Assembly (NCBI GenBank): GCA_016930935.1
Contig: JAFGFT010000019.1
Coordinates: 5,664 to 69,663, forward strand
DNA: 64,000 nt
Direction: 5' to 3'
Source of the DNA: Dehalococcoidia bacterium
GTDB taxonomy: Bacteria > Chloroflexota > Dehalococcoidia > GIF9 > AB-539-J10
In this document: piece by piece, positions 1 to 14,879 of the stretch
Numbering within the stretch: position 1 is the stretch's first letter
How the letters are laid out: each line of letters begins with the position of its first letter
Program-made: the position numbers and the translations under genes
The notes under the pieces: model-generated
What the model saw: only the letters and a program-made list of their open reading frames with translations
Told to the model about the DNA's origin: nothing
Databases searched by the model: none

Positions 1-50
1 CCACCAACAAGCAATCCGATAAGCAGGTAGGCGCCACGGTTACTTTTCAT
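1..50 (-). CDS. 5' end of a gene running off the window (MKSNRGAYLLIGLLVG...), probably a membrane or secreted protein
   Basis: ATG at 50 on the minus strand, open to the window edge; basic then hydrophobic N-terminus; divergent from the S8 gene. Confidence 0.4.
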   Translation of the reverse strand, partial: MKSNRGAYLLIGLLVG

Positions 51-266: not shown

Positions 267-3200
267 ATGAGACACTTTGCCCGTCTTCTCACCGCAGTAC
301 TCTGTTCACTTCTATTCCTCGCACCGGGCGCGCCGTTGACGCAGACGGCCCACGCCAGCGACGGCAGAGGAGCTGAGCTTCTTGAAAACCGACTCGTTGT
401 TCAGTTCGATGACGGCACAGATAGCCGTGAAATGGCCGCCGCGCACAAGCGCGCCGGCGTCACCGTCGTAGCCATGGTTCCCGAACTCAACACCTACGTT
501 GTAGAGCTATCCGGAGGCTCGAAATGGCTTTCTTCCGCACTCTACAAGCTGGACAGCCATGTCGCGGGGGTGGAAGACGACCCCATCGCGTGCACCACTG
601 AGGAGCCGAACGACCTCTACTACAACAACACCCAGGAGTGGGGACTCTTCAACATCGATGCCCAGGGAGCGTGGGAGGTCACCCACAGCAATCCCGACAT
701 CCGCATCGCGGTGCTCGACACCGGCATCCAGAGCACGCACCCCGACCTCGCGGACAAGATAGTCGCCGCAGCCGATTTCACCGGCAGCGGAACTCCTGAA
801 CCGGTCTCAAACACTCACGGCACACACGTTGCCGGCATCGCCGCTGCCTCAACGAACAATGCTATCGGCGTCGCATCAATCGGCTACAACGCGAGCCTGA
901 TGAACGCCAAGGTCATGAACGAAAGCGGCACGGGCTACTACTCCTGGATAGCCGCAGGCGTCATCTGGGCCACAGACAACGGCGCAGATGTCATCAACAT
1001 GAGCCTCGCCGGAACCAGCAATTCTTCGCTGCTGGCGAATGCAATCGACTACGCGTGGGAACACGGAGTAGTCGTAGTAGCCGCTGCCGGCAATGATAGC
1101 AGTACCACCCCGTACTATCCCGCAGCCGACCCCGATTGCATCTCGGTCGCAGCTTCCAACAGAACCAACGTCCTCGAGTCGTGGTCCAACCATGGCTCGT
1201 GGGTAGACGTCTCCGCGCCTTCATCCGCATACTCGACCAGAATCAACTCAAGCTACACCGCGATGCAGGGCACGTCCATGGCCTCGCCTTACGTCGCCGG
1301 TCTCGCCGCCCTGGTGCTCGACGTGGTATCCGACACGAACGGCAACGGCCGCACCAATGACGAAGCCAGGACCGCCATCGAGTCCACGAGTGTCGATTTC
1401 GGCACGGACGTGAAGTACGGCCGCATCGATGCGGCCGCGGCAGTCGCTGCGCCAACCCCACCTTCTGAAGGAGAAGTATCCGGCACAGTGCTGGAGGCAG
1501 CCACCTCGAATCCGCTCGAAGGCGTCTCCGTCACTGACGGCACGCGCTCAACCACCACAGACAGCCAGGGCTTCTACTTCCTCTCCAGCGTCCCTCCCGG
1601 CACGTACACCATCGCCGCAAGTGCGGACAACTACGTCCCGGCGTCGCAGGACATCACCGTTGTTGCCGGGGAGACCGCAACTACAGACTTCTCGCTCGAA
1701 CCCGTGCCTGCGCCCAACCAGGCGCCAGTCCTCGACGCCATCGGCAGCCTTTCAGTAGAAGAGAAGGAGTCGCTGGAATTCTCCGTCACCGCCTCGGACC
1801 CCGACGATGACGCACTGAGCTATTCGATCGACGGTCTGCCGGAGGGCGCGACCTTCGTTGACCCGGTATTCTCATGGACGCCTGCCGTCGGACAGGCGGG
1901 AAGCTACAACGTGACGTTCACCGTTTCCGACGGTGCACTGACGGACGAAGAAACCGTCACCATCAACGTTGAGCAGATACCCCCATACGGGACGGTGACA
2001 GGCACGGTCACGGACATCGTCAGCGGGGAACCCATAGCGGGTGCTCTCGTCTCCAATGGCGAGACATCGGCTATCACAGGCGTGCAGGGCACCTATACGA
2101 TGACGAGCGTCTTCGCAAGCGAATGGACGTTTACCGCCCGGGCCGACCGCCACGTAGACGCCGCAAAGGACGCCACGGTCGTCGCGGGTGACACGACCAC
2201 CGTGGATTTCACCCTCGAGCCGATTCCGAACACCCCTCCTGTCCTGGAGTACATCGGCGACAGGATTGTCGCTGAGGAAGAGATGCTCAGCTTCACTGTG
2301 TCCGGCTCTGACGCCGAGGGTGACAGCCTCTCCTATACGACGTCGGTTCTGCCTGACGGAGCGTGGTTCCAGGACCGGCGCTTCTCCTGGACTCCCTCTC
2401 TTGACCAGAGCGGCATCTACAGCATCACATTCACCGTATCCGACGGCGTTCTCTCCGACTCGGAGACAATCGCCATCGATGTTCTGGACGTGCAGAAATG
2501 CGGTTCCATCGGGGGAACAGTCAGCGACGCCTCGTCGGGTACGCCCATCGCAGGCGCGACGGTATCGGCAGCCGGCACTTCCACTATTACGTCCGCATCG
2601 GGCACGTACACGCTGGCCGATATCTCGCAAGGCGTCTGCTTCGTGGATGTGTCGGCAACCGGCTACGTTTCCTCTTCACGGGACGTGACCGTCACCGCCG
2701 ACAAGGTGTCGTCCGCCGACTTCACTCTCGACCTTCTCCCGAAAAATGCACCGGTCCTCGTCACGATTGGCGACAGGACCGTGGAAGAGACGCAGACACT
2801 GGAAATCACTCTCTCAGGTACGGACGCCGACGGCGACAGCCTGACGTATTTGGCAGGACAACTGCCCAAGGGCGCCAGTTTCGCAGGCCAGGCGTTCTCC
2901 TGGACTCCGGTCGAGGGACAGGCGGGCACCTGGGAGGTCACCTTCACGGTCACCGACGGCACACTCTCCGCGTCAGAAACCGTCACCATCACGGTCACAC
3001 CGGTCCAGCAGACCCCGGACGGCGCAATGTGGACTGAGAGCATCGATTTCTACGCCATCGGCACCCCCACACCCACCATGCTGCGCGTTATCGTGTCCGT
3101 GGTGAATCCCGACCCTCTCAAGGACGCCCTCGTGTTCGTTGACATTGCGGACTCCAGCGGAGCCGTACGTCACCTCTACACAAGGACAGACAGCCTCGGC

Positions 3201-4691
3201 CAGGCGAACTATCTCCTGCGCAACCCCGCCCCCATCACCTATACCGTCACCGTTTCCAGGGTGCTGCACGCCGACTACACATGGTACACATGGTCGGAAG
3301 CACTGGGCGTCACCGAGAAGAGTTTCCTGGTCGGCGAGCCACCGGCGTACGGCCGCGTGCAGGGACAGGTCACGTCGGCCGCCGACGGCCAACCGATAGT
3401 CAATGCAACCGTCACTGACGGAACGCGCACCTCTACTACCGACTCCATGGGAATGTACGCTCTCAACGATGTGCCCGCAGGCGACAACTGCATTGTCAGC
3501 GCCTCAGCGGACGGATACGTGACGAACTCATGTGAGGTCTCAGTCCTGGCCGATAGCACCACCACGCACAACATCACGCTGCAACCGGTGCCAAACACCG
3601 CTCCCTCTCTTAACGCCGTCGGGAGCAAGGCCGTGGACGAGGGCGAGACGCTCCAGTTCTCCGTCTCGGCAACCGACCCGGACAACGACCCTCTGTTCTT
3701 CTCGGCCACAGGGCTTCCGGATGGCGCGGCGTTCGCAGGACAGACCTTCTCATGGACACCGGCTGTCGGCGACGCCGGCATGTACGAAGTAACGTTCGAG
3801 GTCAGCGACGGAGAACTCTCCGATGCCGAAACCATCCATATCACCGTCAACGCAGTGCCGCAGTTTGGCACCGTGTGGGGGACCATCAGCGACATCAACA
3901 CGGGAGCGCCTGTTGAGGGTGCAAACGTGTGCGTTGGGAGCGTGTCAGACACGACGGGTGCGAATGGCGACTACGAGTTGCGCGGCATTCCCGCCGGAGC
4001 GTGGTCCGTCAGCACAAGCGCTGACGGCTACTACGAGGTTTCGCGCACCATCACGGTCGCCGGGAACGACCGCATCAGCGTGGACCTGCACCTGGAACCC
4101 CTGCCCAACGACCCACCGGTGCTTGAACTCATCGGCGACAAAGACGTGGTCGAAGAAGAGGCGCTGGAGTTCACTGTTTCCGCCTTCGATGCGAATGACG
4201 ACGCACTCTCCTACGATGCTGAAGGCCTGCCACAGGGAGCCTCATTCGAAGGGCAGACGTTCTCATGGACGCCCAACGCGGGCCAGGCAGGCAGTTACGA
4301 CGTGACGTTCACCGTTTCAGACGGCGAGGATTGTGACACGAAGACAATCACCATCACCGTGAACGAGGCGCAGGAAGCACCTGCTGATGGCATGTGGGTT
4401 GAGTCCATCAACTTCTACGCGCTGGGCGACCCCACGTCGATGCTGCGCATCGTCGTCTCGGTGGCAACTCCGGAACCACTGGCAGATGCCCTCGTTTTCA
4501 TCGACATCACCACTCCTTCCGGCAAGACGAGCCACCTCTACACCAGGACGGACAGCCTCGGCCAGGCCAACTACCTGCTGCGAAGCCCCGCCCGGGGCGA
4601 GTATCGGGCCACGGTGACACGAATCATGTGCGGTGACTACACGTGGGACACCACGCGAGGCACTGTTTCACAGAACTTCACTCTGCCATAG
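267..4691 (+). CDS. Secreted S8 (subtilisin/thermitase-like) serine protease with five carboxypeptidase-regulatory-like + Ig-like modules and two copies of a ~100-aa domain
   Basis: Signal peptide; catalytic triad motifs AVLDTG, HGTHVAG, GTSMASP; repeated G.V.G.V.D..SG.PI.GA.V and N.PVL..IG...V.E...L.F.VS..D.D.D.L.Y....LP.GA.F....FSWTP modules; GGAGG RBS. Confidence 0.92.
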   Translation: MRHFARLLTAVLCSLLFLAPGAPLTQTAHASDGRGAELLENRLVVQFDDGTDSREMAAAHKRAGVTVVAMVPELNTYVVELSGGSKWLSSALYKLDSHVAGVEDDPIACTTEEPNDLYYNNTQEWGLFNIDAQGAWEVTHSNPDIRIAVLDTGIQSTHPDLADKIVAAADFTGSGTPEPVSNTHGTHVAGIAAASTNNAIGVASIGYNASLMNAKVMNESGTGYYSWIAAGVIWATDNGADVINMSLAGTSNSSLLANAIDYAWEHGVVVVAAAGNDSSTTPYYPAADPDCISVAASNRTNVLESWSNHGSWVDVSAPSSAYSTRINSSYTAMQGTSMASPYVAGLAALVLDVVSDTNGNGRTNDEARTAIESTSVDFGTDVKYGRIDAAAAVAAPTPPSEGEVSGTVLEAATSNPLEGVSVTDGTRSTTTDSQGFYFLSSVPPGTYTIAASADNYVPASQDITVVAGETATTDFSLEPVPAPNQAPVLDAIGSLSVEEKESLEFSVTASDPDDDALSYSIDGLPEGATFVDPVFSWTPAVGQAGSYNVTFTVSDGALTDEETVTINVEQIPPYGTVTGTVTDIVSGEPIAGALVSNGETSAITGVQGTYTMTSVFASEWTFTARADRHVDAAKDATVVAGDTTTVDFTLEPIPNTPPVLEYIGDRIVAEEEMLSFTVSGSDAEGDSLSYTTSVLPDGAWFQDRRFSWTPSLDQSGIYSITFTVSDGVLSDSETIAIDVLDVQKCGSIGGTVSDASSGTPIAGATVSAAGTSTITSASGTYTLADISQGVCFVDVSATGYVSSSRDVTVTADKVSSADFTLDLLPKNAPVLVTIGDRTVEETQTLEITLSGTDADGDSLTYLAGQLPKGASFAGQAFSWTPVEGQAGTWEVTFTVTDGTLSASETVTITVTPVQQTPDGAMWTESIDFYAIGTPTPTMLRVIVSVVNPDPLKDALVFVDIADSSGAVRHLYTRTDSLGQANYLLRNPAPITYTVTVSRVLHADYTWYTWSEALGVTEKSFLVGEPPAYGRVQGQVTSAADGQPIVNATVTDGTRTSTTDSMGMYALNDVPAGDNCIVSASADGYVTNSCEVSVLADSTTTHNITLQPVPNTAPSLNAVGSKAVDEGETLQFSVSATDPDNDPLFFSATGLPDGAAFAGQTFSWTPAVGDAGMYEVTFEVSDGELSDAETIHITVNAVPQFGTVWGTISDINTGAPVEGANVCVGSVSDTTGANGDYELRGIPAGAWSVSTSADGYYEVSRTITVAGNDRISVDLHLEPLPNDPPVLELIGDKDVVEEEALEFTVSAFDANDDALSYDAEGLPQGASFEGQTFSWTPNAGQAGSYDVTFTVSDGEDCDTKTITITVNEAQEAPADGMWVESINFYALGDPTSMLRIVVSVATPEPLADALVFIDITTPSGKTSHLYTRTDSLGQANYLLRSPARGEYRATVTRIMCGDYTWDTTRGTVSQNFTLP
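3018..4688 (+). repeat. Two intragenic copies (approx 3018-3332 and 4386-4688) of an unassigned domain
   Basis: Both read DG(A)MW.ESI.FYA.G.PT..MLR..VSV..P.PL.DALVF.DI...HLYTRTDSLGQANYLLR.P; DNA near-identical in the core. Confidence 0.85.
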
Positions 4692-4715
4692 CAGCAGAAC
4701 GAGTACATACACTGA

Positions 4716-4740
4716 GAGCGGGGCCATAGTGGCCCCGCTC
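4716..4740. terminator. Hairpin between convergent S8 and SipW-class genes
   Basis: GAGCGGGGCCA-TAG-TGGCCCCGCTC perfect inverted repeat. Confidence 0.7.
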
Positions 4741-4766
4741 CCGGGTCTCACGCAAAAGTCCCGTTT

Positions 4767-5960
4767 CTACGGATCGAGTGCTATGAAGACCGTCTGGTAG
4801 CTAGTACCATCCTGGCAGATGACCGCCGCGAGTTGTCCGGCCCCTGGCACGAACGTCGCACCGTTCGCCTCCGCGTCATCGATGATGCCCTGTGCCGTGG
4901 CATCAATATTGGTAACAATGCCACCCCACAGGAAGTACCAGAACGCAACCTGCTGGGGCGAACCGGCAAGAACTTGTCCGTATGGCGCTATATTCACAGT
5001 CTTGCCGGACGGATAGTCCAGTGCCATGTACGCGGGTTGGTTCAAGACCCAGTTGATTTTGTTCCAGGCGGCAATGGTATTGAATGGAGCCTCAAGTGAA
5101 GACAGCAACGTGATGTCAACACTCAGCACCACGGAGTCCTCCGCCTCGCAGCACCACGCGTCCATTGGCTGTGGCTCCAACAGTATTAGGTCGGGCACCA
5201 CGCCCTGACTTGGATCCGTCTCGCTGAACGTCGCCAGGAAGGACCCACCCGGGCCGTTCCAGTTACTGTCCAGATCCAGGTGCACCTTGTAGTCAGGCAG
5301 GTCCATGACCTTCTGAACGTCGGGTTCGCACAGGTTCCACTGGATGGCTTCGAGCTCCAACCTGACGCTACCGGTCACACCGCGGAGCGACATGTCCTGC
5401 GGAATTTCGGCGTAGACGTTCACCTCGAACGTCTCGCACTCGTGGAGCTGGTACTCATCGTCAACGACGAACCTGGTGGCACCTCCGCCGTGGGTGATGG
5501 AACCGTCAGGCCAGACTATCTCCCACCACACGTACGGAATCAGTGCGTCCGGCACGACGACGAAGTCCGTCACACTCACGTGCGCCGGAACACCGTAGTA
5601 GTGCACCAACAGGTCAGCCTTGAACAGCGGTCCGGGGAAGATGTTGTCGAACATCATGAACGCAGTGTCTTCCTCGACGTCGTATTCATCGACGTACGCC
5701 GAGGCGACGTAGAGATAGTTCAGGTCAATCATCTCCTTTTCGCTGAACTTCTCGGTTCCCTCAACCAAGTCACCGTTGCTCAGGTTCTTGTACACGTAGG
5801 TCGCGGAGGTGTCCTCAATGACGAGGTTCACCTCGCCCATCTCTACGATGCCCTGTACGACAAGGTCGTCCGTCCACGAGGCGAAAGCCGCGCCGCAGAG
5901 TCCCACGGCCAGAACCGCAGCCATGGTCATGAGACCGAGTCTACCGAGTTTGCTTCTCAT
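4767..5960 (-). CDS. SipW-class signal peptide (TasA/CalY-like) protein with C-terminal putative thioester domain (TED)
   Basis: N-terminal GAAFA/SWTDDLVVQGIVEMGEVNL; core ends AIQWN; C-terminal AWCCE...WNKINWVLN...QQVAFWYF...SYQTVF motifs. Confidence 0.75.
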   Translation of the reverse strand: MRSKLGRLGLMTMAAVLAVGLCGAAFASWTDDLVVQGIVEMGEVNLVIEDTSATYVYKNLSNGDLVEGTEKFSEKEMIDLNYLYVASAYVDEYDVEEDTAFMMFDNIFPGPLFKADLLVHYYGVPAHVSVTDFVVVPDALIPYVWWEIVWPDGSITHGGGATRFVVDDEYQLHECETFEVNVYAEIPQDMSLRGVTGSVRLELEAIQWNLCEPDVQKVMDLPDYKVHLDLDSNWNGPGGSFLATFSETDPSQGVVPDLILLEPQPMDAWCCEAEDSVVLSVDITLLSSLEAPFNTIAAWNKINWVLNQPAYMALDYPSGKTVNIAPYGQVLAGSPQQVAFWYFLWGGIVTNIDATAQGIIDDAEANGATFVPGAGQLAAVICQDGTSYQTVFIALDP

Positions 5961-5987
5961 GCCATTCCTCCTTTTGCGCTACTTCGC

Positions 5988-6716
5988 CTAGTCAATGAGC
6001 GGATACTCGTTCCACTGGACCATGTTGATGGTGGTGGTGAAGCCGCCGGTCTTGTTCATGAGCGTGTTGTCCTGCGGGACATGAATCCACCACTCGATCA
6101 TGACCCTGTCACAGTACTCGAGCTGGAGTCCTTCCAGGTCGACCATGACCCATCCTGGTGTGGTACCTGCAGCGTCTTCCCACTTGTAGGCGACCATGTA
6201 GAACTCGGGCGCCGAAGTCATGTTCCAAAGAGCCGCAAGCCACTCACTTTCGTCACCGAACTCCATTGTCGGACTCAGCTTCGCCGGCACGCTGCCGATG
6301 TAGTGCAGCACGATGTCGGCTTTGAACCAGACGCACGGGAAGAGGTTGTTGAACTTCACCTCGAACGACTGGCCTTTGCCCTGGATGCAGTTTCCCTCAT
6401 CAAGCATGCCCGGAAGTTGCCCCGTCCAATCAGCGGAGGCGACAGGCAGCAGGATGTCTGCAGACACGTCGAGTTCCTCCGGCGAGACCAAGACGTCGCC
6501 GGGTTCATACGTTTCGTCATCAAACTCGTACTGCTGGAGCACCTTGTACACCCAGGTCTCAGAGAACCCGCAGATCTCGTAGCCGAGACTACCGGTGGTC
6601 ACCTCACCCTCGATGCTGACCTGGTCGGTCCACGACGCGAAGGCCGCGCCCATGGTGCCGACTGCAAACACAAGGGCCAACATCAGCATGCCGACCTTAC
6701 TTACTCTGCTTCTCAT
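5988..6716 (-). CDS. SipW-class signal peptide (TasA/CalY-like) protein
   Basis: Start re-assigned to MRSRVSK (GGAGG RBS); GAAFA/SWTDQVSIEGEVTTGSL; NLFPCVW; C-terminal VQWNE. Confidence 0.8.
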   Translation of the reverse strand: MRSRVSKVGMLMLALVFAVGTMGAAFASWTDQVSIEGEVTTGSLGYEICGFSETWVYKVLQQYEFDDETYEPGDVLVSPEELDVSADILLPVASADWTGQLPGMLDEGNCIQGKGQSFEVKFNNLFPCVWFKADIVLHYIGSVPAKLSPTMEFGDESEWLAALWNMTSAPEFYMVAYKWEDAAGTTPGWVMVDLEGLQLEYCDRVMIEWWIHVPQDNTLMNKTGGFTTTINMVQWNEYPLID

Positions 6717-6768
6717 TTCATTTCCTCCATGTAGTGATGCCGTCTGCGGCCGCTTTTGCGACCGCCGG

Positions 6769-6864
6769 CAGGACCACCCGCACCGACCGCGCCCCACGCC
6801 GGGCACATGAACCCTCCGGGCGCGCACGGGCCTCCATTGTTGTCCACTATCCTGCCGGGCATCA
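6769..6864 (-). ncRNA. Candidate structured RNA motif A, copy 1
   Basis: UGAU-GCCCG-GCAGGA...GCCCGG...GGUCG-nnn-CGGGU-GGUCC, shared with three other leaders. Confidence 0.45.
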
Positions 6865-6903
6865 TGTCAGTCACTTCCCTTGGATTCCTTGCGTTCCGTG
6901 AAC

Positions 6904-7752
6904 CTATTCAGCCCACTGTTCGGCATCGATGGTGATAAGGAACTCACAATCAGCGTTCTGTGGCATCACCATCAGACCGTTCGGCCCCTCAATGTCCTGC
7001 TCAAAGTGCCAGTTGAGCTGAAGCCACAGGGTGTGGCACGGCTCAAGCTGGAAGGGCTTACCTCCCTCCCATCCGGAGAGGAAATACTCCAGTCCTGCTG
7101 CACCTTGCATGCCTGTGTAGGTGGGTCCATTCGTCACACCGCTACAGGTAGTTGCATCGTGGACACACCACCACCAATCGTGCAGTTCAAGCCACTGCAA
7201 GACGGAGCAGTCTGTGGCACCCACCGGTTCAAAGTCCACGTCAACGATGTGCAGCGGAATCGAGCCGTTGTTGGCAATGCAGATGACCACGCCACTGGCG
7301 TACCACGGATAGGCATTGTGTATCTCCTCACGAATGGCACCGTAGAACGGAGCAGCATCCCCGAGCAGGTGCACGTCCTTGTTGAAGCGCAAGCTATCGG
7401 TGACGTTGTAGCTGTTCGTCGAGGCGACGTTCTTGAATTCCTCGTTGGTAGCGGATCCAAACTGTGGGTCAGGACTGCCGTTGGTCCACGGATCGGTGGG
7501 CGGGTTTCCGGGATAGAGCATACCCCCCTCTTCCGGCAGATAGTTTGGCCCCCAGTCAAGGTCCACCATGTAGTTGAGGTCCTGCAAGCCGGTCGCGGTC
7601 ACGTCACAAATGCCGACCTGGAAATCAGCGGTTGTCACAACGCCATTGACCACCAGTTGGTCAGTCCAGGACGCGAACCCTGCGCCCATAACGCCAACCA
7701 CAAGGACAAGCGCCACCATCAATACACTGACCCTTCCCAATCTGTGTTTCAT
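6904..7752 (-). CDS. SipW-class signal peptide (TasA/CalY-like) protein
   Basis: GAGFA/SWTDQLVVNGVVTTADF; NAYPWY; NNGSIP; QLEPC; C-terminal AEQWAE. Confidence 0.8.
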   Translation of the reverse strand: MKHRLGRVSVLMVALVLVVGVMGAGFASWTDQLVVNGVVTTADFQVGICDVTATGLQDLNYMVDLDWGPNYLPEEGGMLYPGNPPTDPWTNGSPDPQFGSATNEEFKNVASTNSYNVTDSLRFNKDVHLLGDAAPFYGAIREEIHNAYPWYASGVVICIANNGSIPLHIVDVDFEPVGATDCSVLQWLELHDWWWCVHDATTCSGVTNGPTYTGMQGAAGLEYFLSGWEGGKPFQLEPCHTLWLQLNWHFEQDIEGPNGLMVMPQNADCEFLITIDAEQWAE

Positions 7753-7784
7753 CTTCTATCTTCCTCCAAATCTCGTACCCGTTG

Positions 7785-7880
7785 CAGGCACCGCCCGTCT
7801 CGACCGTGCAGCGGGGTGCAGGCCCGCGCCTCCACCTCTGCTGCCTCCGGGCACATTGTCTTCTGTCCTGCCGGGTATCA
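7785..7880 (-). ncRNA. Candidate structured RNA motif A, copy 2
   Basis: UGAU-ACCCG-GCAGGAC...GCCCGG...GGUCGAGA-CGGGC-GGU. Confidence 0.45.
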
Positions 7881-7894
7881 CCTCAGTTCTTCCC

Positions 7895-8638
7895 CTATGG
7901 CAGGGGCGGGGCTCCGGTCCACTCGTTCCACTGGATGGCGTTGATGTCAACGCCCCACTGGGCACTCAGGTTCTGGAGGGCGTTGTCCTGCGGGATGTTC
8001 ATGATTACCTCAAGCAGCAGGTAGTCACAGTAGTGCATCTGCCAGCCGTTGTAGAGGTTGATCCTGCCAGGCCCCCAATCTGAATCTATGGACGCGTCAG
8101 GCTCGAACACACCCGTTTCAGGGTCGTAGTCACCTATCGTGGCGGTGTCGAAGATGGCCCGCGGAGTCACGGTTGAGTAGTCCCAGCCCATGATGTCAGT
8201 CAACGCTAAGTCGCCTGTCTTGAAGGTCTCATAGGCCCAGACCTCCGCCGGGATAGAGCCGTTGTAGTGCAGCAGGACATCTGCAACAAAACTCTCATAC
8301 GGGAAGATGTTGGTTGCCACACCCACTACGTCGGCGACCTCATCAGTTCCCGCCTCACGCATGTAGAATGACGCAATCTCTATGCCGCCCGCAGGCGCGC
8401 CGGGGAACTCGTCCATCCAGCCGTGCCAGTCGACCGTCTCATTGTTATCACCGCCCGGCACCTTCCAGACATACGTTCCCGAGTACCTGACTACTTCAAG
8501 GTCCAGGGTGCCCGTATCGACCTCTCCGGTAATCTGGACCTCGTCCGTCCAGGACGCGAACCCCGCGCCCATGACGCCCACCACAAGGACAAGCGCCACC
8601 GTCAGCAGCCCAATCTTTCCCAGTCTATGTTGTTTCAT
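7895..8638 (-). CDS. SipW-class signal peptide (TasA/CalY-like) protein
   Basis: GAGFA/SWTDEVQITGEVDTGTLDL; NIFP; HYNGSIPA; C-terminal AIQWNE; GGAGGAGG RBS. Confidence 0.82.
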   Translation of the reverse strand: MKQHRLGKIGLLTVALVLVVGVMGAGFASWTDEVQITGEVDTGTLDLEVVRYSGTYVWKVPGGDNNETVDWHGWMDEFPGAPAGGIEIASFYMREAGTDEVADVVGVATNIFPYESFVADVLLHYNGSIPAEVWAYETFKTGDLALTDIMGWDYSTVTPRAIFDTATIGDYDPETGVFEPDASIDSDWGPGRINLYNGWQMHYCDYLLLEVIMNIPQDNALQNLSAQWGVDINAIQWNEWTGAPPLP

Positions 8639-8732
8639 CTCTAATCCTCCTCCAATATCTATCTCTTGCCCGTTGCAGGGACTACGGCATCTCCGCCCGA
8701 CTCACCGGGAGAAGTCACCTCGCTCCCGCACA

Positions 8733-8815
8733 CAGGACCGCCCGTCTCGACCGCGCCCCACCTCTCTCCGGCGGGCACGCCCGGGCAACGGTTCCCCTGC
8801 CCTGTGCGGGCTTCA
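8733..8815 (-). ncRNA. Candidate structured RNA motif A, copy 3
   Basis: UGAA-GCCCG-CACAGGGC...GCCCGG...GGUCGAGA-CGGGC-GGUCCUG. Confidence 0.45.
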
Positions 8816-8966
8816 TCAAGTCACTCCACCTCGTCCCCATATTCGCAGGTGTGCCTTACCGGGCTTGCGCCCGACCGCCCGGGACCGACCGGCCCCAACG
8901 AACCCCCCTGGCCCCCGGACGACTCGGCAGTTGTATTCATATGGTTCTTCAACATCCTCTGTTGCA

Positions 8967-9857
8967 CTACGAAACTTCACACCAGAGACTGGCAATGACC
9001 TCAAGTTCGAGGGAGATGTTCGCGCCTTCCGGCATCGGCGTGCCCCCGGAGACATCCACGAAGTAGACGGCGACGCCAAGCTCAAGCGCCTCTCCCGGCT
9101 CCAGTTGTACCGGCCCGCTGTTGAGCCACGTGGCGAGGAACTCCTCGAGGGCAGGCCCGGTCTTGAAGGCATAGTCATCGCCCCAGCTATCCGCCACACT
9201 GCCTTCACTCCACAGAACCGCATCCCAGTGGTCCACCAGCGCGAATGGAAGGGCACCGGAAGGGTCGAGGACGTTCAGGACGTCCATGCCCTCAACGTTG
9301 ATTGGCAGCGTGCCTCCATTGCCGAACACGAGCGTCGTGCCCGTCAGGTACCATGGATACACGTTGTTGAATTCCTCCCGCACGCGGCCATAGAAGGGCA
9401 TGAAGCTCATGTCCTTCACATCTTCAAGGTCGAACAACCACGGCTCCAGGTTGGTGCTGTGGGTGGACGCAAGATTGGGGATGGTGACAATAGCGGGTTC
9501 AACCTTCGGCAGCAGGGCCGGCAGTATCACCGCCGCGCCGGCAGGAATGAAATAGCGCGCCACGGCGCTCCGAGCCACCATCTGGACACGGTTGTCTATC
9601 GTTCCGTCAAAGGGGGAATTCACAGGGAAGGCGGCCCCACCCGGCTCCAGGTAATTGGGACCGGGGTCCCAGGAAGCGTAGTCGTAGATGCCGTACTCCA
9701 CGTTTCCTGTCGTGACGACCGCGTCCACCACAACGTCGTCAGCCCAGTATGCGAAGGCCATGCCCATCGCCGATAGCGCGACAACCGAGGTCATCACCAC
9801 TATCCCGACAAATGCAGTCCTGCGCCTCCTCACGGCCTTCCCCACTCCTTCACGCAT
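8967..9857 (-). CDS. Divergent SipW-class signal peptide protein, first gene after the riboswitch
   Basis: GMAFA/YWADDVVVDAVVTTGNV; NVYPWY; GNGGTLP; QLEPGE; start uncertain (ATG 9857 or GTG 9833). Confidence 0.75.
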   Translation of the reverse strand: MREGVGKAVRRRRTAFVGIVVMTSVVALSAMGMAFAYWADDVVVDAVVTTGNVEYGIYDYASWDPGPNYLEPGGAAFPVNSPFDGTIDNRVQMVARSAVARYFIPAGAAVILPALLPKVEPAIVTIPNLASTHSTNLEPWLFDLEDVKDMSFMPFYGRVREEFNNVYPWYLTGTTLVFGNGGTLPINVEGMDVLNVLDPSGALPFALVDHWDAVLWSEGSVADSWGDDYAFKTGPALEEFLATWLNSGPVQLEPGEALELGVAVYFVDVSGGTPMPEGANISLELEVIASLWCEVS

Positions 9858-9879
9858 CAGGCGTACCGTTACTCCCTGC

Positions 9880-9914
9880 AAAAAGACAAAACCGCCCTCT
9901 CACCGAGGCCGGTT
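9880..9914 (-). terminator. Intrinsic terminator overlapping the 3' end of the riboswitch aptamer
   Basis: AAACCG-GCCUC-GGUGA-GAGGG-CGGUUUU-GUCUUUU (one mismatch). Confidence 0.65.
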
Positions 9915-9975
9915 TCGCCACTGGCTCCGCGCACCCCCGGCGACCAGATCGCGGGGCACGCATCAACGCCTCCTC
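9905..9975 (-). promoter_or_regulatory. c-di-GMP-II-like riboswitch
   Basis: GAGG-AGGCGUUGAUG-CGUGCCCC...GGUCGCC-GGGGGUGCG-CGGAGCCAGU-GGCGAAACC-GG-CCUC: P1 GAGG/CCUC, kink-turn-like UGAUG/GGA, P3 stem, pseudoknot GGUCGCC/GGCGAAACC, by eye against the RF01786 consensus. Confidence 0.8.
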
Positions 9976-10024
9976 TAGTTGTTGACGCCTCTGTCAGTAT
10001 TCTCTCTGCTTGTCTCTCTCCCTG

Positions 10025-10459
10025 TCAGTAGACTCTGGATGCTGAACCCTCCGGCGTACAGGCAAACCCGCCCGCCGAAGTCAGGTTTCTCTCTTCCTTC
10101 GTGGACCGTGACAACAACATCCTTACCCTCGCCAGCATCTCCCGCGCATCCAGCGGCATAGGAAGATAGGCATCCGCCCCCATCTCCAGGAATGGGACCC
10201 CGGCAACCTCTTCATAGTCATCGCCGAGCACGATTTTCGGCATGTCGAACAACCGGAACATCTGCCGCGCCACCCCACAGTCACACATTGCCGGACAGTG
10301 CTGCGCGACAATCACCAGGTCGGCCTCAGACCGGCGCTGCCCAACTGCCACATTCCGGCTTCCCACCCCCACATCAACCTGATAGCCGGTATGGCGGAGA
10401 AAAAACGCGATTCGCTCCCGGCGTTCACAGTCGGGGTCCAGCAGCAGTATCCGTTGCAT
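10025..10459 (-). CDS. Stand-alone atypical response regulator receiver domain
   Basis: RILLLD..., DLVIVA, LEMGADAYLPMP...EMLARVRMLL; phospho-acceptor Asp position is Ala; no output domain. Confidence 0.7.
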   Translation of the reverse strand: MQRILLLDPDCERRERIAFFLRHTGYQVDVGVGSRNVAVGQRRSEADLVIVAQHCPAMCDCGVARQMFRLFDMPKIVLGDDYEEVAGVPFLEMGADAYLPMPLDAREMLARVRMLLSRSTKEERNLTSAGGFACTPEGSASRVY

Positions 10460-11034
10460 GACCCAATCCAACACATTGCAAGGGTGGCTCAACACACTGG
10501 TGGGTACAGTGCAACGGAAGAGGAGAATGGTGGAAGAATGGAAGCAAAAGGTCGCGGCAGGGTATAAATTGGTGCCTATCTGGTCAACGCGACAACGATG
10601 GCTCGACGGAGGGATTCTCTGTCATCGCCTTCATCACATTCTCTGCACCACCACCCTGCGGCACTATGGAATCGAGCCGGGGTGGTGGCCGCCAATGTCG
10701 ACACGATTATCGGCAGTGCGAACCGTTCAACAAGACCTCGTTCCCGAACCCATGGCTCCGGACGCAACTACCGCGGTCGGCACATGAAGATGCCGACTTT
10801 TCCCGGTCAGCCTCTCACATTGTCCTTCCTCCTCACCACACGCATTCTGCATCTGTCACGTGGCCTGTTGCACAGGGAGACGTTGGCCTGTGCTTCACGC
10901 CTGCGCGGAAGCCTGTTCACCTCTTCCGCACTCCGAACGGAGCGGCGCCTCAAGGCATTGACGGACACGTATGCCGCGCCACACAGTGCCGAGAGCGAAC
11001 CGTCCTTCGGCAGCACAGACCGTGAAACGGGACT

Positions 11035-11067
11035 GCGAGGGCGGGGCCAGTGGCCCCACCCTCACGC
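11035..11067 (-). terminator. Hairpin downstream of the second TED-bearing gene
   Basis: GAGGGCGGGGCCA-G-TGGCCCCACCCTC; resembles the 4716-4740 hairpin. Confidence 0.55.
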
Positions 11068-11088
11068 TATCGCGCCGGTCTCAAGACG

Positions 11089-12270
11089 CTACGGGTCAAT
11101 CTCCACGAAAACGGTCTGGTAGCTGATGCCATCCTGACAGATGACTGCCGCCAACTGGCCGGCTCCGGGGATGAAACCTGCAGAGTTCGCGTTGGCGTCC
11201 GCGATGAGGACCTGCGAGATGTCCGCCGCAGGGGGTGACCAGCCACCCGGCTGGTAATTCCAGTACGCCCGCTGCCGCGCGGAGTGGGTCATCACTCCCG
11301 AGAGCCCGCCCACTGTCATCTGGAGCCCGTCGAAGTTGTACGGCGGGTCACGATACGCGGGCCGGTTCAACAGGTAGTTGATGGGCTCCCATGCAGGCAT
11401 TCCTATGGTCGAGATGAGCGTCACGTCGAGTTCCACAACTGAGGATGTCTCGAACTCGAAGCACCATGCCGGCCACGGGTTGCCGAGCTCCAGCCACTCA
11501 TACCCTGCGGGTACGCTGCTGAAGTACGCGTCGAAGTACGACCGCGGAGAACCGTACGAGTCAAGCGTCGGCGAGTACGCGCCCTGCAACACAAGGTGTA
11601 CCGGTGTAGACGGCAGGTCGAGTACTTTCTGCACGACCGGCTCGCACAGGTTCCACTGGACCGCCTCCATGGCGAACGAGACACTCCCTGTCAGGCCCTG
11701 CACTGCCGGGTCCTGCGGAAGTTGTGCGTAGATGTTGACCTCGAACTCTTCGCACTCGTGGACCTGGTAGTAGCCGTCCACGATGAACAAGAGAGTGTCC
11801 ATCGCCCCTGATGACGTGGTGCCGTCAGGCCAGACAATCTCCCACCACACATACGGGGCAAGCTCCGGGGGCGCGACGTCGAAGTTCTCGAGCGTCACGT
11901 GAGCAGGGACGCCATAGTAATGAATGAGAAGGTCTGCCTTGAACAACGGTCCGGGGAACAGGTTGTCGAACAGGACGGTGGCCGTGTCGTTCAGAACGTT
12001 CTCCTCGTCAGCGATTGCTTGCGCCGAGGCGATGAGCTTGTAGTCAGGATCAATCATCTCCTCTTCAAGCACGACTATCCCGCCGGTCGAGAGAATCTTG
12101 TACACGAGCGTCTCAGACGTGTCCTCGATAACAAGGTCGACTTCACCGGTTGAGACCGTTCCATGTACGACAACTTCGTCCGTCCACGAGGCGAACGCAC
12201 CTCCGCACAGTCCCACGCCGAGGACCATGGCCATGGTCATGAGGCCCAGTCTTCTGAGTCTGCTTCTCAT
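11089..12270 (-). CDS. SipW-class signal peptide protein with C-terminal putative thioester domain; paralog of 4767-5960
   Basis: Start MRSRLRR (GGAGG RBS); GGAFA/SWTDEVVVHGTVSTGEVDL; AVQWN; AWCFE...WEPINYLLN...RQRAYW...SYQTVF. Confidence 0.77.
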   Translation of the reverse strand: MRSRLRRLGLMTMAMVLGVGLCGGAFASWTDEVVVHGTVSTGEVDLVIEDTSETLVYKILSTGGIVVLEEEMIDPDYKLIASAQAIADEENVLNDTATVLFDNLFPGPLFKADLLIHYYGVPAHVTLENFDVAPPELAPYVWWEIVWPDGTTSSGAMDTLLFIVDGYYQVHECEEFEVNIYAQLPQDPAVQGLTGSVSFAMEAVQWNLCEPVVQKVLDLPSTPVHLVLQGAYSPTLDSYGSPRSYFDAYFSSVPAGYEWLELGNPWPAWCFEFETSSVVELDVTLISTIGMPAWEPINYLLNRPAYRDPPYNFDGLQMTVGGLSGVMTHSARQRAYWNYQPGGWSPPAADISQVLIADANANSAGFIPGAGQLAAVICQDGISYQTVFVEIDP

Positions 12271-12304
12271 GCCACACCTCCATTCAGCCAATCAGTCGCG
12301 GGAC

Positions 12305-12958
12305 TCACGGAGCAGGTTCGTTCCACTGAGTGTTGGTGATGGTGCAGGTGAACGAGCCGCTCTTGCTCATGAGCTCATCAAGCTGGTCGAGGTGGAACCA
12401 GAACCAGAGCTTGACGCGGTCGCAGAACTCCCACTGGTAGTAGAAGGGCTCGCTCATGAAGTCGATCTCCTCCAAGGTGTCATAGTTGTAGGCCTCGATG
12501 GACATCGTTTCGCCGAGCAGGGGGTCGCCCTCCCACTCACAGTCGACGGTCAGGTGCGCAGGGATACCTCCGATGTAGTGCAGACCTATGTCGATGCCGT
12601 GCCAGACACAGGGGAACAGGTTCCAGTACACGACCTCGAATGTCGGAGGAACCTCTATCTCGCGTCCTTCCGAAGCATCGAACGGGTCGACATCTACGAT
12701 ATCGGCATAGGAGACGAGCAGCATCTCGGGCGGTATGGGATCGAGAGGAGCGCCCAACGTAACGACTTCATCAGTCACAAGGTCCTTGTAGACCCAGACC
12801 TCAGAGAGTTGGTAGATCCTCCAGCCAAAATCCGCGGTGGTGACCGTACCCGACACAACGACTTGATCCGTCCAGGAGGCGAAGCCCGCGCCCATGACAG
12901 CAACGGCGAACACCAGCGCCAACATGAGCATTCCAACCTTTCCCAATCTTCCTCGCAT
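12305..12958 (-). CDS. SipW-class signal peptide (TasA/CalY-like) protein; paralog of 5988-6716
   Basis: GAGFA/SWTDQVVVSGTVTTADF; NLFPCVW; LHYIGGIPA; CDRV; C-terminal TQWNE. Confidence 0.8.
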   Translation of the reverse strand: MRGRLGKVGMLMLALVFAVAVMGAGFASWTDQVVVSGTVTTADFGWRIYQLSEVWVYKDLVTDEVVTLGAPLDPIPPEMLLVSYADIVDVDPFDASEGREIEVPPTFEVVYWNLFPCVWHGIDIGLHYIGGIPAHLTVDCEWEGDPLLGETMSIEAYNYDTLEEIDFMSEPFYYQWEFCDRVKLWFWFHLDQLDELMSKSGSFTCTITNTQWNEPAP

Positions 12959-13050
12959 CTTCTTACTCCTTCACGAATAACGCAGGCACAATCCTCTTGT
13001 GCCCATCACAGGCGCCACCAGCCTGTAAGCATCAACTCGCGCCTGTGCGC

Positions 13051-13164
13051 AAGACTGCCCGTATCGACCACGCACCACCCGCTGACAGTTGCGAGACAAC
13101 CCTCACCACTCCTCTCACCAGGTTGCTACGCCCGGACATCCGTATCGCGTCCTGCGGGGCACCA
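13051..13164 (-). ncRNA. Candidate structured RNA motif A, copy 4
   Basis: UGGU-GCCCC-GCAGGAC...GUCCGG...GGUCGAUA-CGGGC-AGUC. Confidence 0.4.
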
Positions 13165-13344
13165 CATCTCTTCTCGCGCTCGTGTCTGTCTTGTATCTTG
13201 ATTCACGGCGTGTCTCTCGGGATACCCTTCCCCACGCCCGGGATCGACCGGTCCACCGGCACTGGATGCGCCCTGCCCCCCGGCGATTCGGCTGGAAGAG
13301 ACAGTGTGTTGTGTCCTGCGATTGTGATCCTCCTTCACCAGAGA

Positions 13345-13371
13345 CCAAAAAACCGACCCTGAGGTCGGTTT
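13345..13371 (-). terminator. Intrinsic terminator overlapping the 3' end of the riboswitch aptamer
   Basis: AACCGACC-UCAG-GGUCGGUU-UUUU. Confidence 0.8.
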
Positions 13372-13435
13372 CGCCATTGGCTCCGCGCGCCACACCGGCG
13401 ACCATATGAAAGGACGCGCATCAACGCCTCCCCAG
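13359..13435 (-). promoter_or_regulatory. c-di-GMP-II-like riboswitch
   Basis: CUGGGG-AGGCGUUGAU-GCGCGUC...GGUCGCC...GGCGCGC-GGAGCCAAU-GGCGAAACC-GA-CCUCAG; P1, P3 and pseudoknot all pair. Confidence 0.82.
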
Positions 13436-13546
13436 CAGACTTGCGTCTTCTCTAACTCATCTTGCTCCGCGCGCCACTCCGGCGACCACATGATAGGACG
13501 CGCACATCAACGCCTCCTCAACAGACTTACGTCATCTCTTCCATCT
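13380..13546. repeat. ~84-nt tandem direct repeat; the upstream copy is a 3'-truncated riboswitch aptamer
   Basis: 13380-13462 and 13464-13546 both begin GCTCCGCGCGCCAC.CCGGCGACCA.ATGA.AGGACGCGCA. Confidence 0.85.
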
Positions 13547-13915: not shown

Positions 13916-14614
13916 CTAGTCAGTAGCTGAAGTTGCAGAAAGCATGTAGCCAACGCCGCGACGATTGACGATGTAGCGCGGCTCGGCAGGGTCTTCTTCC
14001 AGCTTCGCACGTAGGCGATGGATGTACTTCTTGACGAATTCGGGGTCCGCGTAGCCCTCATTACCCCACACCCGGCCAAGAAGATCCTGACGGGTCACCA
14101 CCGTGCCCTCATGTTTCGCAAGCTGACACAGCACCTTGAACTCCGTGGGCGTGAGCGTGGCACGCCTGCCATCGATGCGAACTTCCTGCGTGCCGAAATC
14201 GATGCTCAGCGCGCCGTTGAAGTACTTCGATTCCTCTGACATCGAGCCCGTCCCCACGCGACGCAGCAGTGCATTCACGCGGGCAATGAACTCCATGGGA
14301 ATCGAGGACGGGCGTATCCAGTCATCCGCTCCTGTCTCAAGCGTGCGGACCTTCGCAACGACGTCGTCGAATTGACCAACAACTATGAGGGGAACATCGC
14401 TGAAGGAACGAACCTGGGTGATGGCATCACAACAACGGGCGACGTCTTCGTCACAGGCGATGAGAAACAGTGAGGGCTCCTCTCTGCGGAGCGCGGCAAT
14501 GCTCTCACGAGCGTCACTGGTTCGTTGAATGACGAGGTTGCGCCATCTCACCTGGAGAATGACACGAAGGGTCTCTGCCAGTTCCTCCGTTCCACCCAGT
14601 ATCACCGCCTTCAT
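13916..14614 (-). CDS. OmpR/KdpE-family response regulator with atypical receiver
   Basis: C-terminal winged helix LTPTEFKVL...YIHRLRAKLEEDPAEPRYIVNRRGVGY; receiver lacks the acidic pair and phospho-Asp. Confidence 0.88.
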   Translation of the reverse strand: MKAVILGGTEELAETLRVILQVRWRNLVIQRTSDARESIAALRREEPSLFLIACDEDVARCCDAITQVRSFSDVPLIVVGQFDDVVAKVRTLETGADDWIRPSSIPMEFIARVNALLRRVGTGSMSEESKYFNGALSIDFGTQEVRIDGRRATLTPTEFKVLCQLAKHEGTVVTRQDLLGRVWGNEGYADPEFVKKYIHRLRAKLEEDPAEPRYIVNRRGVGYMLSATSATD

Positions 14615-14879
14615 TTCCAGCCCACCGCACCCTACAGGCCCAGCACGACCCCGGGGCTCCCCGGGGTTCCTAATGCGACAAATCAAGATGTGACAATCGT
14701 CACGCGTACCATAATACTATGCCGAGTCTGCTTGTCAACACCCACCACCTCACACAAGCCACAATTCAGAGAGATTCTTCATCGAATATGACCATCGTCT
14801 GCGATGTCAATGACTTTCTGGTGATGGACAGACAGGGCCTTTGTGGCTAGAGTGAAGTCACTGCAACTGGAGTAATGTC

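Follow-up and report, generated by a model that had tools for sequence, protein, structure and literature searches.

Adhesins with an internal thioester have been described as a Gram-positive device, carried on sortase-anchored proteins and pili (PMC4450167; 10.64898/2026.02.05.703941), and the thioester domains (TEDs) responsible are given in PMC4450167 as reported exclusively from Gram-positive bacteria. As set out in PMC4450167 and PMC6194298, the Cys of the thioester is situated within the pattern [YFL]C-Phi-zeta on strand C and the Gln within the pattern Phi-Q-zeta-Phi-Phi on the last strand, Q (Phi, hydrophobic; zeta, polar), and a TQxxPhiW motif is found on the central helix, beside the thioester bond. 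Solved TEDs of class I include CpTIE (5A0G), SfbI (5A0L), PnTIE (5A0N) and Cpa (4C0Z, 2XI9), the last of these being the tip adhesin of a sortase pilus, the T-pilus of Streptococcus pyogenes. Class II (BaTIE, 6FWV; SaTIE, 6FX6; EfmTIE86, 6FWY; pLS20 TIE) carries in addition a beta-sandwich insert, or slipknot, of approximately 75 residues (PMC6194298). The second group of systems relevant here comprises TasA and the TapA-SipW-TasA system of Bacillus subtilis, camelysin, and the archaeal TasA-like fibres (bundling pili and cannulae). In the literature searched, no paper was found that places a thioester domain on a TasA-family protein or in archaea. In this report a gene is described that may join the two kinds of system. 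It lies in a stretch of 64,000 nucleotides from a Dehalococcoidia bacterium (GenBank assembly GCA_016930935.1, contig JAFGFT010000019.1, positions 5,664 to 69,663), referred to below as the window, whose numbering is used throughout.

The gene (copy 1; 4767..5960, minus strand, from the open reading frame (ORF) list and its translation) encodes a protein of 397 aa, P0001, that is probably exported by the Sec pathway and appears to be made up of a SipW-type signal, then a TasA/camelysin-like beta-sandwich and finally a TED-like domain of about 175 aa at the C-terminus. The signal peptide, of the SipW-dependent type by its motif, would occupy residues 1-27 (5880..5960), with a putative cleavage site at ...GAAFA/SWTDD. 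It is followed by a segment with low model confidence (residues 28-44; 5829..5879), which by analogy with TasA-type proteins is a candidate donor strand, and by the predicted beta-sandwich core (residues 45-209; 5334..5828), which is common to five shorter paralogs in the window. A linker (residues 210-225; 5286..5333) leads to the TED-like domain (residues 226-397; 4770..5285), modelled as a beta-barrel with three helices.

The initial annotation had described, from the letters alone, an extra stretch of about 185 aa behind the sequence QWN, with the motifs AWCCE, WNKINWVLN, QQVAFWYF and SYQTVF, and this was borne out: positions 4767..5330 encode C211 to P397 plus the stop codon, 187 aa beyond the ...IQWN209 that ends the shared core, and all four motifs were found in the order claimed (residues 268-272, 299-307, 336-343 and 387-392, respectively). 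The candidate thioester residues are Cys270 (WC270CE; 5151..5153) and Gln389 (YQ389TVF; 4794..4796), and Gln337 (QQVAFW; 4950..4952) is the putative counterpart of the Gln in the helix motif; all three codons were checked. The explanation favoured here, and held to be rather probable on the strength of the models and residue conservation described below, is that the C-terminal domain is a divergent, compact TED of class I type, which probably forms a thioester and is carried on a TasA-like, SipW-dependent subunit independent of sortase.

Predicted fold and conserved residues of the C-terminal domain

A template-free AlphaFold2 model of the 192 C-terminal residues was calculated from a 38-row alignment. 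The model, with a mean predicted local distance difference test score (pLDDT) of 85.8 and a predicted template modelling score (pTM) of 0.85, contains six main strands and three helices. When it was compared with the PDB using Foldseek, TED-type adhesin domains accounted for all three matches at E<=0.001 and for every one of the first 10 rows (among them 4c0z, Cpa; 5a0l, SfbI; 5a0g, CpTIE; and 5dcq, FNE), with probabilities of 0.95-1.00 and template modelling (TM) scores of 0.39-0.47. In a second look with VIA-align the best 10 entries were likewise all TEDs, from 5a0g_B (Z 9.0, root-mean-square deviation (rmsd) 3.7 A, 139 aligned residues) to 5a0n (Z 5.8), and the next entry had a Z of 3.3. 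An independent VIA-align search of 48,161 PDB chains returned eight chains at Z>=5, every one of them a TED (5a0g, 8.7; 2xi9, 8.4; 6fwv, 8.1; 5a0l, 7.5; 6fwy, 7.4; 6fx6, 7.0; 5dcq, 6.7; 5a0n, 5.8), the next chain scoring 3.8. Because of this gap to all other chains, and because the alignments cover approximately residues 17-192 of the model, the assignment to the TED fold is regarded as specific. Class II TEDs are matched by the model in their upper lobe (Z 7.0-8.1), but the domain of copy 1 is too short for the class II insert and does not carry it. The fold predicted for the domain is thus that of class I, a beta-barrel with a three-helix bundle.

The three candidate residues are placed in the model much as their counterparts are in class I TEDs. 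Cys270 ends the third strand (E61-65), Gln337 and Trp341 are on the middle helix (130-139), and Gln389 leads into the last strand (E186-190). The thioester Gln has been published as residue 267 in 5a0g, 261 in 5a0l and 247 in 5a0n (PMC4450167). The structural alignments close at model residue 192, opposite residues 275, 269 and 255 of these three structures, respectively, so that, if the last strand is taken to be ungapped, Gln389 (Q184 of the domain) precedes the aligned end by 8 residues, as do Gln267, Gln261 and Gln247. Gln575 of Cpa, set against residue 583 of 2xi9, presumably fits the same offset. By this indirect route Gln389 is likely to be the equivalent of the thioester Gln of the solved class I TEDs. 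The spacing between Cys and Gln is 119 residues in copy 1 and 129 in CpTIE.

The motifs themselves agree in large part with those of described TEDs. The sequence W-C270-C-E, for which the family consensus is W-C-V-D, follows the strand-Cys motif with one deviation; Y-Q389-T-V-F has the hydrophobic-Q-polar-hydrophobic-hydrophobic pattern on the last strand; and Q-Q337-V-A-F-W341 corresponds on the helix to TQxxPhiW, a motif that is common but not universal in TEDs.

Conservation was determined with a local family hidden Markov model (HMM), which collected 127 domain instances from metagenome proteins and genome loci; of these, 119 span the region from the Cys to the Gln. Cys270 is present in 118 of these 119 instances, being replaced by Ser in P0029, and Gln389 is kept in 119/119; as in the solved class I TEDs, these two are among the best-kept residues. 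Gln337 was found in 113/119 and Trp341 in 115/119. In addition, the family has a conserved helix of the form W..xN..xN that distinguishes it from class I TEDs: Trp299 is kept in 115/119, Asn303 in 117/119 and Asn307 in 119/119. The conservation of these last three residues is in part selected, because a peptide pattern spanning W299-N307 served to retrieve the 59 genome loci; neither the Cys nor the Gln columns belonged to that pattern. The family consensus reads ...GWCVD...W..VNYILN...(D/E)(I/V)QxAIWYF...GF(V/I)PG.GQ..AVIC..G...QxTFIEV(DP).

A second fusion gene in the window, copy 2 (11089..12291, minus strand; likely start at the ATG at 12270), encodes a paralog with 53 % identity to copy 1 over the full length. 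It keeps AWCFE, RQRAYW and YQTVF, with Cys277, Gln340 and Gln392 as the candidate residues. Since copy 2 and the 119 domain instances retain them, the motifs of copy 1 are considered to be more than a chance occurrence. Taken with the TED-like predicted fold and the placement of the motifs, this conservation supports the putative Cys-Gln thioester domain that the initial annotation had proposed.

A common fold does not, of course, prove a common chemistry. The best-surviving alternative is a TED-folded domain without a thioester, serving as a non-covalent binding module in which Cys270 is free or paired with Cys271 or Cys382 and the conserved Gln residues have a structural role. That two more cysteines (C271 and C382) are close in the sequence, and that no TED HMM recognises the domain, would be consistent with such a module. 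It is thought to be unlikely, given that Cys270 and Gln389 are far better kept than either of those cysteines (C271 is Cys in 18/119 instances and C382 in 54/119) and occupy the structural elements that hold the bond-forming pair in the solved TEDs.

Several further observations weigh against the favoured explanation, that of a thioester-forming TED on a TasA-like subunit. In absolute terms the structural matches are of moderate quality (TM <=0.47, Z <=9, rmsd 3.5-4 A). Trp, in place of Tyr, Phe or Leu, precedes the Cys, and the Thr of TQxxPhiW is replaced by Gln in copy 1 and by Ile or Val in the wider family. No sequence similarity to class I TEDs was detectable. The initial annotation had looked to the PF08341 and TIGR03934 HMMs, and neither lent support: PF08341 (cut-off 22 bits) matched neither the complete protein (E<=1) nor, at E<=10, the isolated domain or any sequence of the genome, and TIGR03934 (TQXA domain) gave nothing at E<=10 on the domain, nor in the whole genome. 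When the family profile was compared with the PDB sequences, no TED appeared at E<=10, and the sole match was the human cytomegalovirus (HCMV) protein UL130 (E 0.02-0.04), regarded as chance. Profile-profile comparison with hhalign, which covered class II but not class I, gave a probability of 0.15 % against the single pLS20 TIE TED sequence (from NC_015148.1, where its PF08341 match has an E value of 5.7e-7) and of 1.5 % against a class II profile of 61 rows (the pLS20 query and 60 relatives). The best scores of an ESM Atlas look-up were 0.80-0.81, with one cluster having PF08341 on 11 % of its members; this was too weak and was not used. Finally, the layout departs from that of the TIE proteins: the domain stands at the C-terminus, LPXTG motif and isopeptide stalk are both lacking, and a search of the organism's own genome (2.38 Mb, 92 % complete) revealed no PF04203 sortase. 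Membership of the TED superfamily is argued here from predicted structure, motif placement and conservation, and not from sequence statistics.

Two minor observations were made during these searches. UL130 was also the sole Pfam/NCBIfam match to the domain (E 0.088) and was again taken as chance. The class II proteins related to pLS20 TIE list newer Pfam entries (PF26764, PF27071 and PF27438) that are beyond the Pfam copy scanned.

The TasA-like scaffold and a possible fibre

The initial annotation had also assigned copy 1 to the SipW-class, TasA-like subunits. This assignment is likewise favoured here, and a SipW-type peptidase gene is indeed located nearby. PF12389 matched residues 7-97 of P0001 weakly (E 0.0018, 18.5 bits), below its cut-off of 22.5, and NF046066 (TasA) matched P0001 with an E value of 0.02 and 14.3 bits, against a cut-off of 450. 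TIGR04088 was absent from the matches of copy 1; for copy 2 and four of the five short paralogs it scored 10.9-17.3 bits, the cut-off being 19. The designation 'TasA-like' is drawn from these sub-threshold matches together with the peptidase gene and a non-specific beta-sandwich.

The full-length model has a pLDDT of 85.7 and a pTM of 0.52, compared with a pTM of 0.85 for the C-terminal domain by itself. It shows a signal helix (2-28), a low-confidence segment (29-44; pLDDT <50 at 29-33 and 35-38), strands across 45-207 with pLDDT mostly >90, and, after a low-confidence linker (pLDDT <50 at 210-215), the TED-like domain. With residues 41-212 of this model VIA-align found 261 chains at Z>=5, which were generic beta-sandwiches; among them were two donor-strand filament subunits, the Sulfolobus 0406 filament (7pnb, Z 7.3) and the Pyrodictium cannulae (9h8b, Z 6.4). 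TasA was not among the 50 entries shown, and Foldseek, run with the full-length model, returned neither TasA nor any match at E<=0.001. Because the matches form a long list of generic beta-sandwiches, the N-terminal fold is not regarded as diagnostic.

Five short TasA-like paralogs without the extra domain are encoded in the window, all on the minus strand, and were identified as ORFs with paralog matches. Four of them (5988..6719/6827, 6904..7752, 7895..8638 and 8967..9881), with TIGR04088 scores just under its cut-off and matches to residues 1-209 of P0001, are directly upstream of copy 1, and the fifth (12305..12958) is 13 bp upstream of copy 2. Each fusion gene thus closes its run of shorter paralogs, with a gap of 27 bp (or an overlap with the longest p3 ORF) at copy 1. 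When the structure of the core (residues 29-212) was predicted together with the adjoining paralog, the pair scored 0.49, the best of three controls scoring 0.00, and the runs had at least 92 % contact agreement and a partner pLDDT of at least 78. The mark applied to such scores is reached by 51/78 solved complexes and 2/108 mismatched pairs, but scores of <=0.60 that reach it include 5/78 solved complexes and all 4 mismatches that passed, so that the result lends weak support to a pairing of the two.

The likeness to TasA, the TapA-SipW-TasA system, camelysin and the archaeal fibres lies in the SipW-type signal motif, a nearby SipW/archaeal-type peptidase, a predicted beta-sandwich core preceded by an N-terminal strand modelled as disordered, and several paralogous subunits in a row; the locus differs from those systems in that the peptidase is fused to a multi-pass membrane domain and in that the HMM scores are under their cut-offs. 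It shares with Cpa and the sortase pili the concept of a polymeric surface fibre with a covalent warhead, but assembly would here proceed by SipW processing and probably by strand complementation, rather than by sortase transpeptidation.

A mechanism can be proposed on this basis. After export the signal would be removed near GAAFA/SWTDD by the SipW-type peptidase, and the subunit, by way of its freed N-terminal strand and its beta-sandwich core, would be able to join fibres made of the five shorter paralogs. The C-terminal domain, on its flexible linker, would form the Cys270-Gln389 thioester by itself, and a nucleophile of the target, most likely the amine of a lysine, would attack it, the resulting isopeptide bond to Gln389 locking the fibre to the target. 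Rather than standing at the tip, the position suggested in the initial annotation, the fused subunit might just as well be distributed over the length of the fibre.

The combination of the two parts is not confined to this locus. The same C-terminal domain follows N-termini that score over the PF12389 cut-off in P0013, P0017 and P0045 (3 of 10 proteins scanned), and a local N-terminal HMM detected a TasA-like N-terminus together with the domain in P0001-P0005, P0011, P0012, P0016, P0030, P0037, P0038 and one ORF from Ignavibacteriaceae. Among 41 genomes of the same genus or order, including that of the organism itself, four had matches to P0001, and outside its own genome these covered residues 1-216 only; this query did not reveal the fused form in any of the 40 relatives, and no ORF of the loci L065-L067 and L069 matches the TED-like HMM. 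One same-genus genome (G009; locus L069, 1426..2541, minus strand) encodes a TasA-like subunit of 371 aa with a different C-terminal extension of approximately 130 aa, which has no match to that HMM. Because this subunit carries a different extension, the C-terminal cargo looks modular, which suggests that such cargo domains are interchangeable on these TasA-like subunits. A further arrangement is seen in P0019 (398 aa), in which the TED-like domain (approximately 73-230) is apparently situated between the signal and donor-strand segment (3-68) and the TasA-like core (191-394).

Distribution of the domain family

A word-indexed search found four close relatives of P0001, with 42-67 % identity and all with the same two-domain layout; these proteins (P0002-P0005) have no precomputed Pfam entry. 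When 1.84 billion cluster representatives were searched exhaustively with HMMER, 49 proteins were returned at E<=1e-3, of which five were at <=1e-10 and two at <=1e-30. From the alignment of these relatives, the domain is approximately 160-190 residues in length. In 47 of the 49 (P0003 and P0004 being set aside), PF08341 matched two proteins (best E 0.0013), TIGR03934 two (best E 2.4e-6), PF12389 four and TIGR04088, the SipW signal, four. The PF08341 match in P0047 covers the QxAIW helix only and, at 19.6 bits, is below the cut-off of 22. Existing sequence models do not cover this divergent TED family.

To this were added the results of a scan of one genome per species, in which 60 of 160 pattern matches were confirmed, in 59 loci; in these loci 68 ORFs match the local HMM, with E values from 1e-27 to 2.5e-66. 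By their labels, 33 of the 59 loci are archaeal (Bathyarchaeia, Thermoplasmata/Thermoplasmatota, Methanoregula, Methanobacteriota and Nanoarchaeota). The 26 bacterial loci derive from Anaerolineales and other Chloroflexota, Bacteroidota, Ignavibacteriaceae, Planctomycetota and Verrucomicrobiota, and further from families of Acidobacteriota, Thermodesulfovibrionales, Syntrophobacteraceae and WOR-3. In contrast to the reported distribution of TEDs, the family occurs in archaea and in bacteria other than Firmicutes.

The layouts are diverse. Many archaeal proteins, of approximately 220-245 aa, consist of a signal peptide, the domain and a C-terminal hydrophobic and basic tail. In Bacteroidota a lipoprotein-like signal is followed by approximately 310 aa and a C-terminal domain, often with two or three such genes in tandem; in the metagenome-assembled genomes of loci L018, L020, L023, L027 and L043 the tandem genes encode lipoprotein-like products of approximately 490-570 aa, and the domain ends in ...KLDP. 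Other layouts are very long multidomain proteins and the TasA-like N-terminus with a C-terminal domain, as in copy 1. P0014 has the classical TIE-like order, with the TED-like domain at its N-terminus followed by DUF7507, DUF11 and SdrD_B and a weak LPXTG match. Together with the PF08341 and TIGR03934 matches among the relatives, this protein forms a bridge to the known TEDs and speaks in favour of the TED reading. The domain family is unannotated in Pfam and is present on several scaffolds.

It was also observed that ...DP forms the exact terminus of 43 of the 44 instances in which the domain is C-terminal, the remaining one ending in CP; in copy 1 these residues are Asp396-Pro397 (4770..4775). 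DP is found near the domain end in 2 of 81 non-terminal instances. The ...DP ending looks like a conserved C-terminal signature of the TED-like domain.

Whether these proteins make up an unrecognised third class of compact Cys-Gln thioester domains is judged to be evenly balanced. Such a class would have the motifs WC(V)D, (I/V)QxAIW and QxTF(I)E, often with a ...DP C-terminus, and be absent from Pfam and NCBIfam; it would be carried on sortase-free scaffolds (TasA-like fibres, lipoproteins and membrane-anchored archaeal proteins) and be common in Archaea (Bathyarchaeia, Thermoplasmatota, methanogens and Nanoarchaeota) as well as in Chloroflexota, Bacteroidota, Planctomycetota, Verrucomicrobiota, Acidobacteriota and WOR-3. 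In that case prokaryotes in general would make use of covalent 'harpoon' adhesion, which would be no speciality of Gram-positive pathogens and would reach into archaeal and environmental biofilms. If the domain of copy 1 does form the bond, it would represent the first case of a TasA-type fibre with a covalent warhead, a large unannotated family would be opened to tests of covalent adhesion, and compact new TED scaffolds would become available for protein-ligation tools.

The distribution also bears on a second alternative, in which the thioester is real but self-directed: the bond would be made to a lysine on an adjacent subunit or on the cell envelope, cross-linking or anchoring the TasA-like fibre instead of catching a foreign target. 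A SipW-dependent matrix protein of Clostridium perfringens is reported to have intermolecular isopeptide bonds (10.1101/2024.11.04.621531), each fusion gene here is the last behind its shorter paralogs, and no sortase was found that might anchor the fibres. The domain is, however, also situated on membrane-anchored archaeal proteins, lipoproteins and large multidomain proteins without fibre subunits, which argues for a general outward-facing binding role, and nothing identifies an acceptor lysine; a self-directed bond is consequently viewed as doubtful, and quite unlikely. That the domain is instead a Cys-dependent enzyme, a protease or of transglutaminase type, on a fibre subunit is highly improbable and was rejected: although the near-invariant Cys follows an aromatic residue and the neighbouring gene encodes a large secreted protease, no His or acidic residue (Asp or Glu) is among the invariant or nearly invariant columns of the 119 instances, which disfavours a catalytic triad, and no enzyme fold exceeded Z 3.8 among the 48,161 chains.

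Gene neighbourhood

The SipW/archaeal-type signal peptidase gene crosses the left edge of the window, with its start inside the window at approximately position 50 (1..50, minus strand; ORF at 1492..2643, minus strand, of locus L003). Its match to TIGR02228 (G000:C30:4571-4870) reaches 72.1 bits, above the cut-off of 51.85. The peptidase forms the C-terminal part of a 383-aa protein, the first approximately 230 residues of which are a multi-pass membrane domain, and downstream of the gene is one for an acidic protein of at least 479 aa with a C-terminal transmembrane segment.

Between the peptidase gene and the fibre genes, a secreted S8 subtilase of 1474 aa is encoded (267..4691, plus strand; Pfam scan). 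It has a fervidolysin-like prodomain, five CarboxypepD_reg modules and five He_PIG/Big_9 modules, and its gene is convergent with copy 1, at a distance of 75 bp. A functional link of the subtilase to the fibre genes may be supposed from this position.

Contigs from metatranscriptome libraries of two studies (sediment and marine sediment) match copy 1 at 4741-5303 (22 differences in 563 letters), 4767-5348 and 5525-6046 (no differences). Across 4741-5348 they are 96-98 % alike; this indicates presence in RNA libraries and is no proof of transcription. Among the differences listed (there are 57 more), none is in the codons of Cys270, Gln337 or Gln389. The RNA-library contigs, from four runs, leave 9072-11290 and most of copy 2 uncovered, which says nothing either way. 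A promoter and terminator scan of 4500-13500 gave one promoter-like sequence, where 2.4 were expected, and eight terminator-like sequences, where 4.4 were expected, and is not informative.

Long ORFs of 367-484 aa are located antisense to the fibre genes (5280..6734, 8382..9776 and 12098..13201, all on the plus strand); these are probably not genes, but open frames of the kind typical of G+C-rich coding DNA. Between the two runs of fibre genes is an ORF of 156 aa (10025..10495, minus strand), which had no Pfam match at E<=0.001 and which, by eye, resembles a receiver domain. The Pfam scan identified, as ordinary bacterial housekeeping genes of the window, those for a Mur ligase, IlvC, LeuA and OmpR-type regulators. 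Named relatives of the IlvC carry the labels Chloroflexota (74 % identity) and Dehalococcoidia (71-72 %), and a single partial match of 96 %, on a contig of 1.2 kb, that of Hyphomicrobiaceae; on this basis the host is tentatively regarded as a Chloroflexota-like bacterium. An OmpR-type regulator is encoded at 13916..14686 (minus strand).

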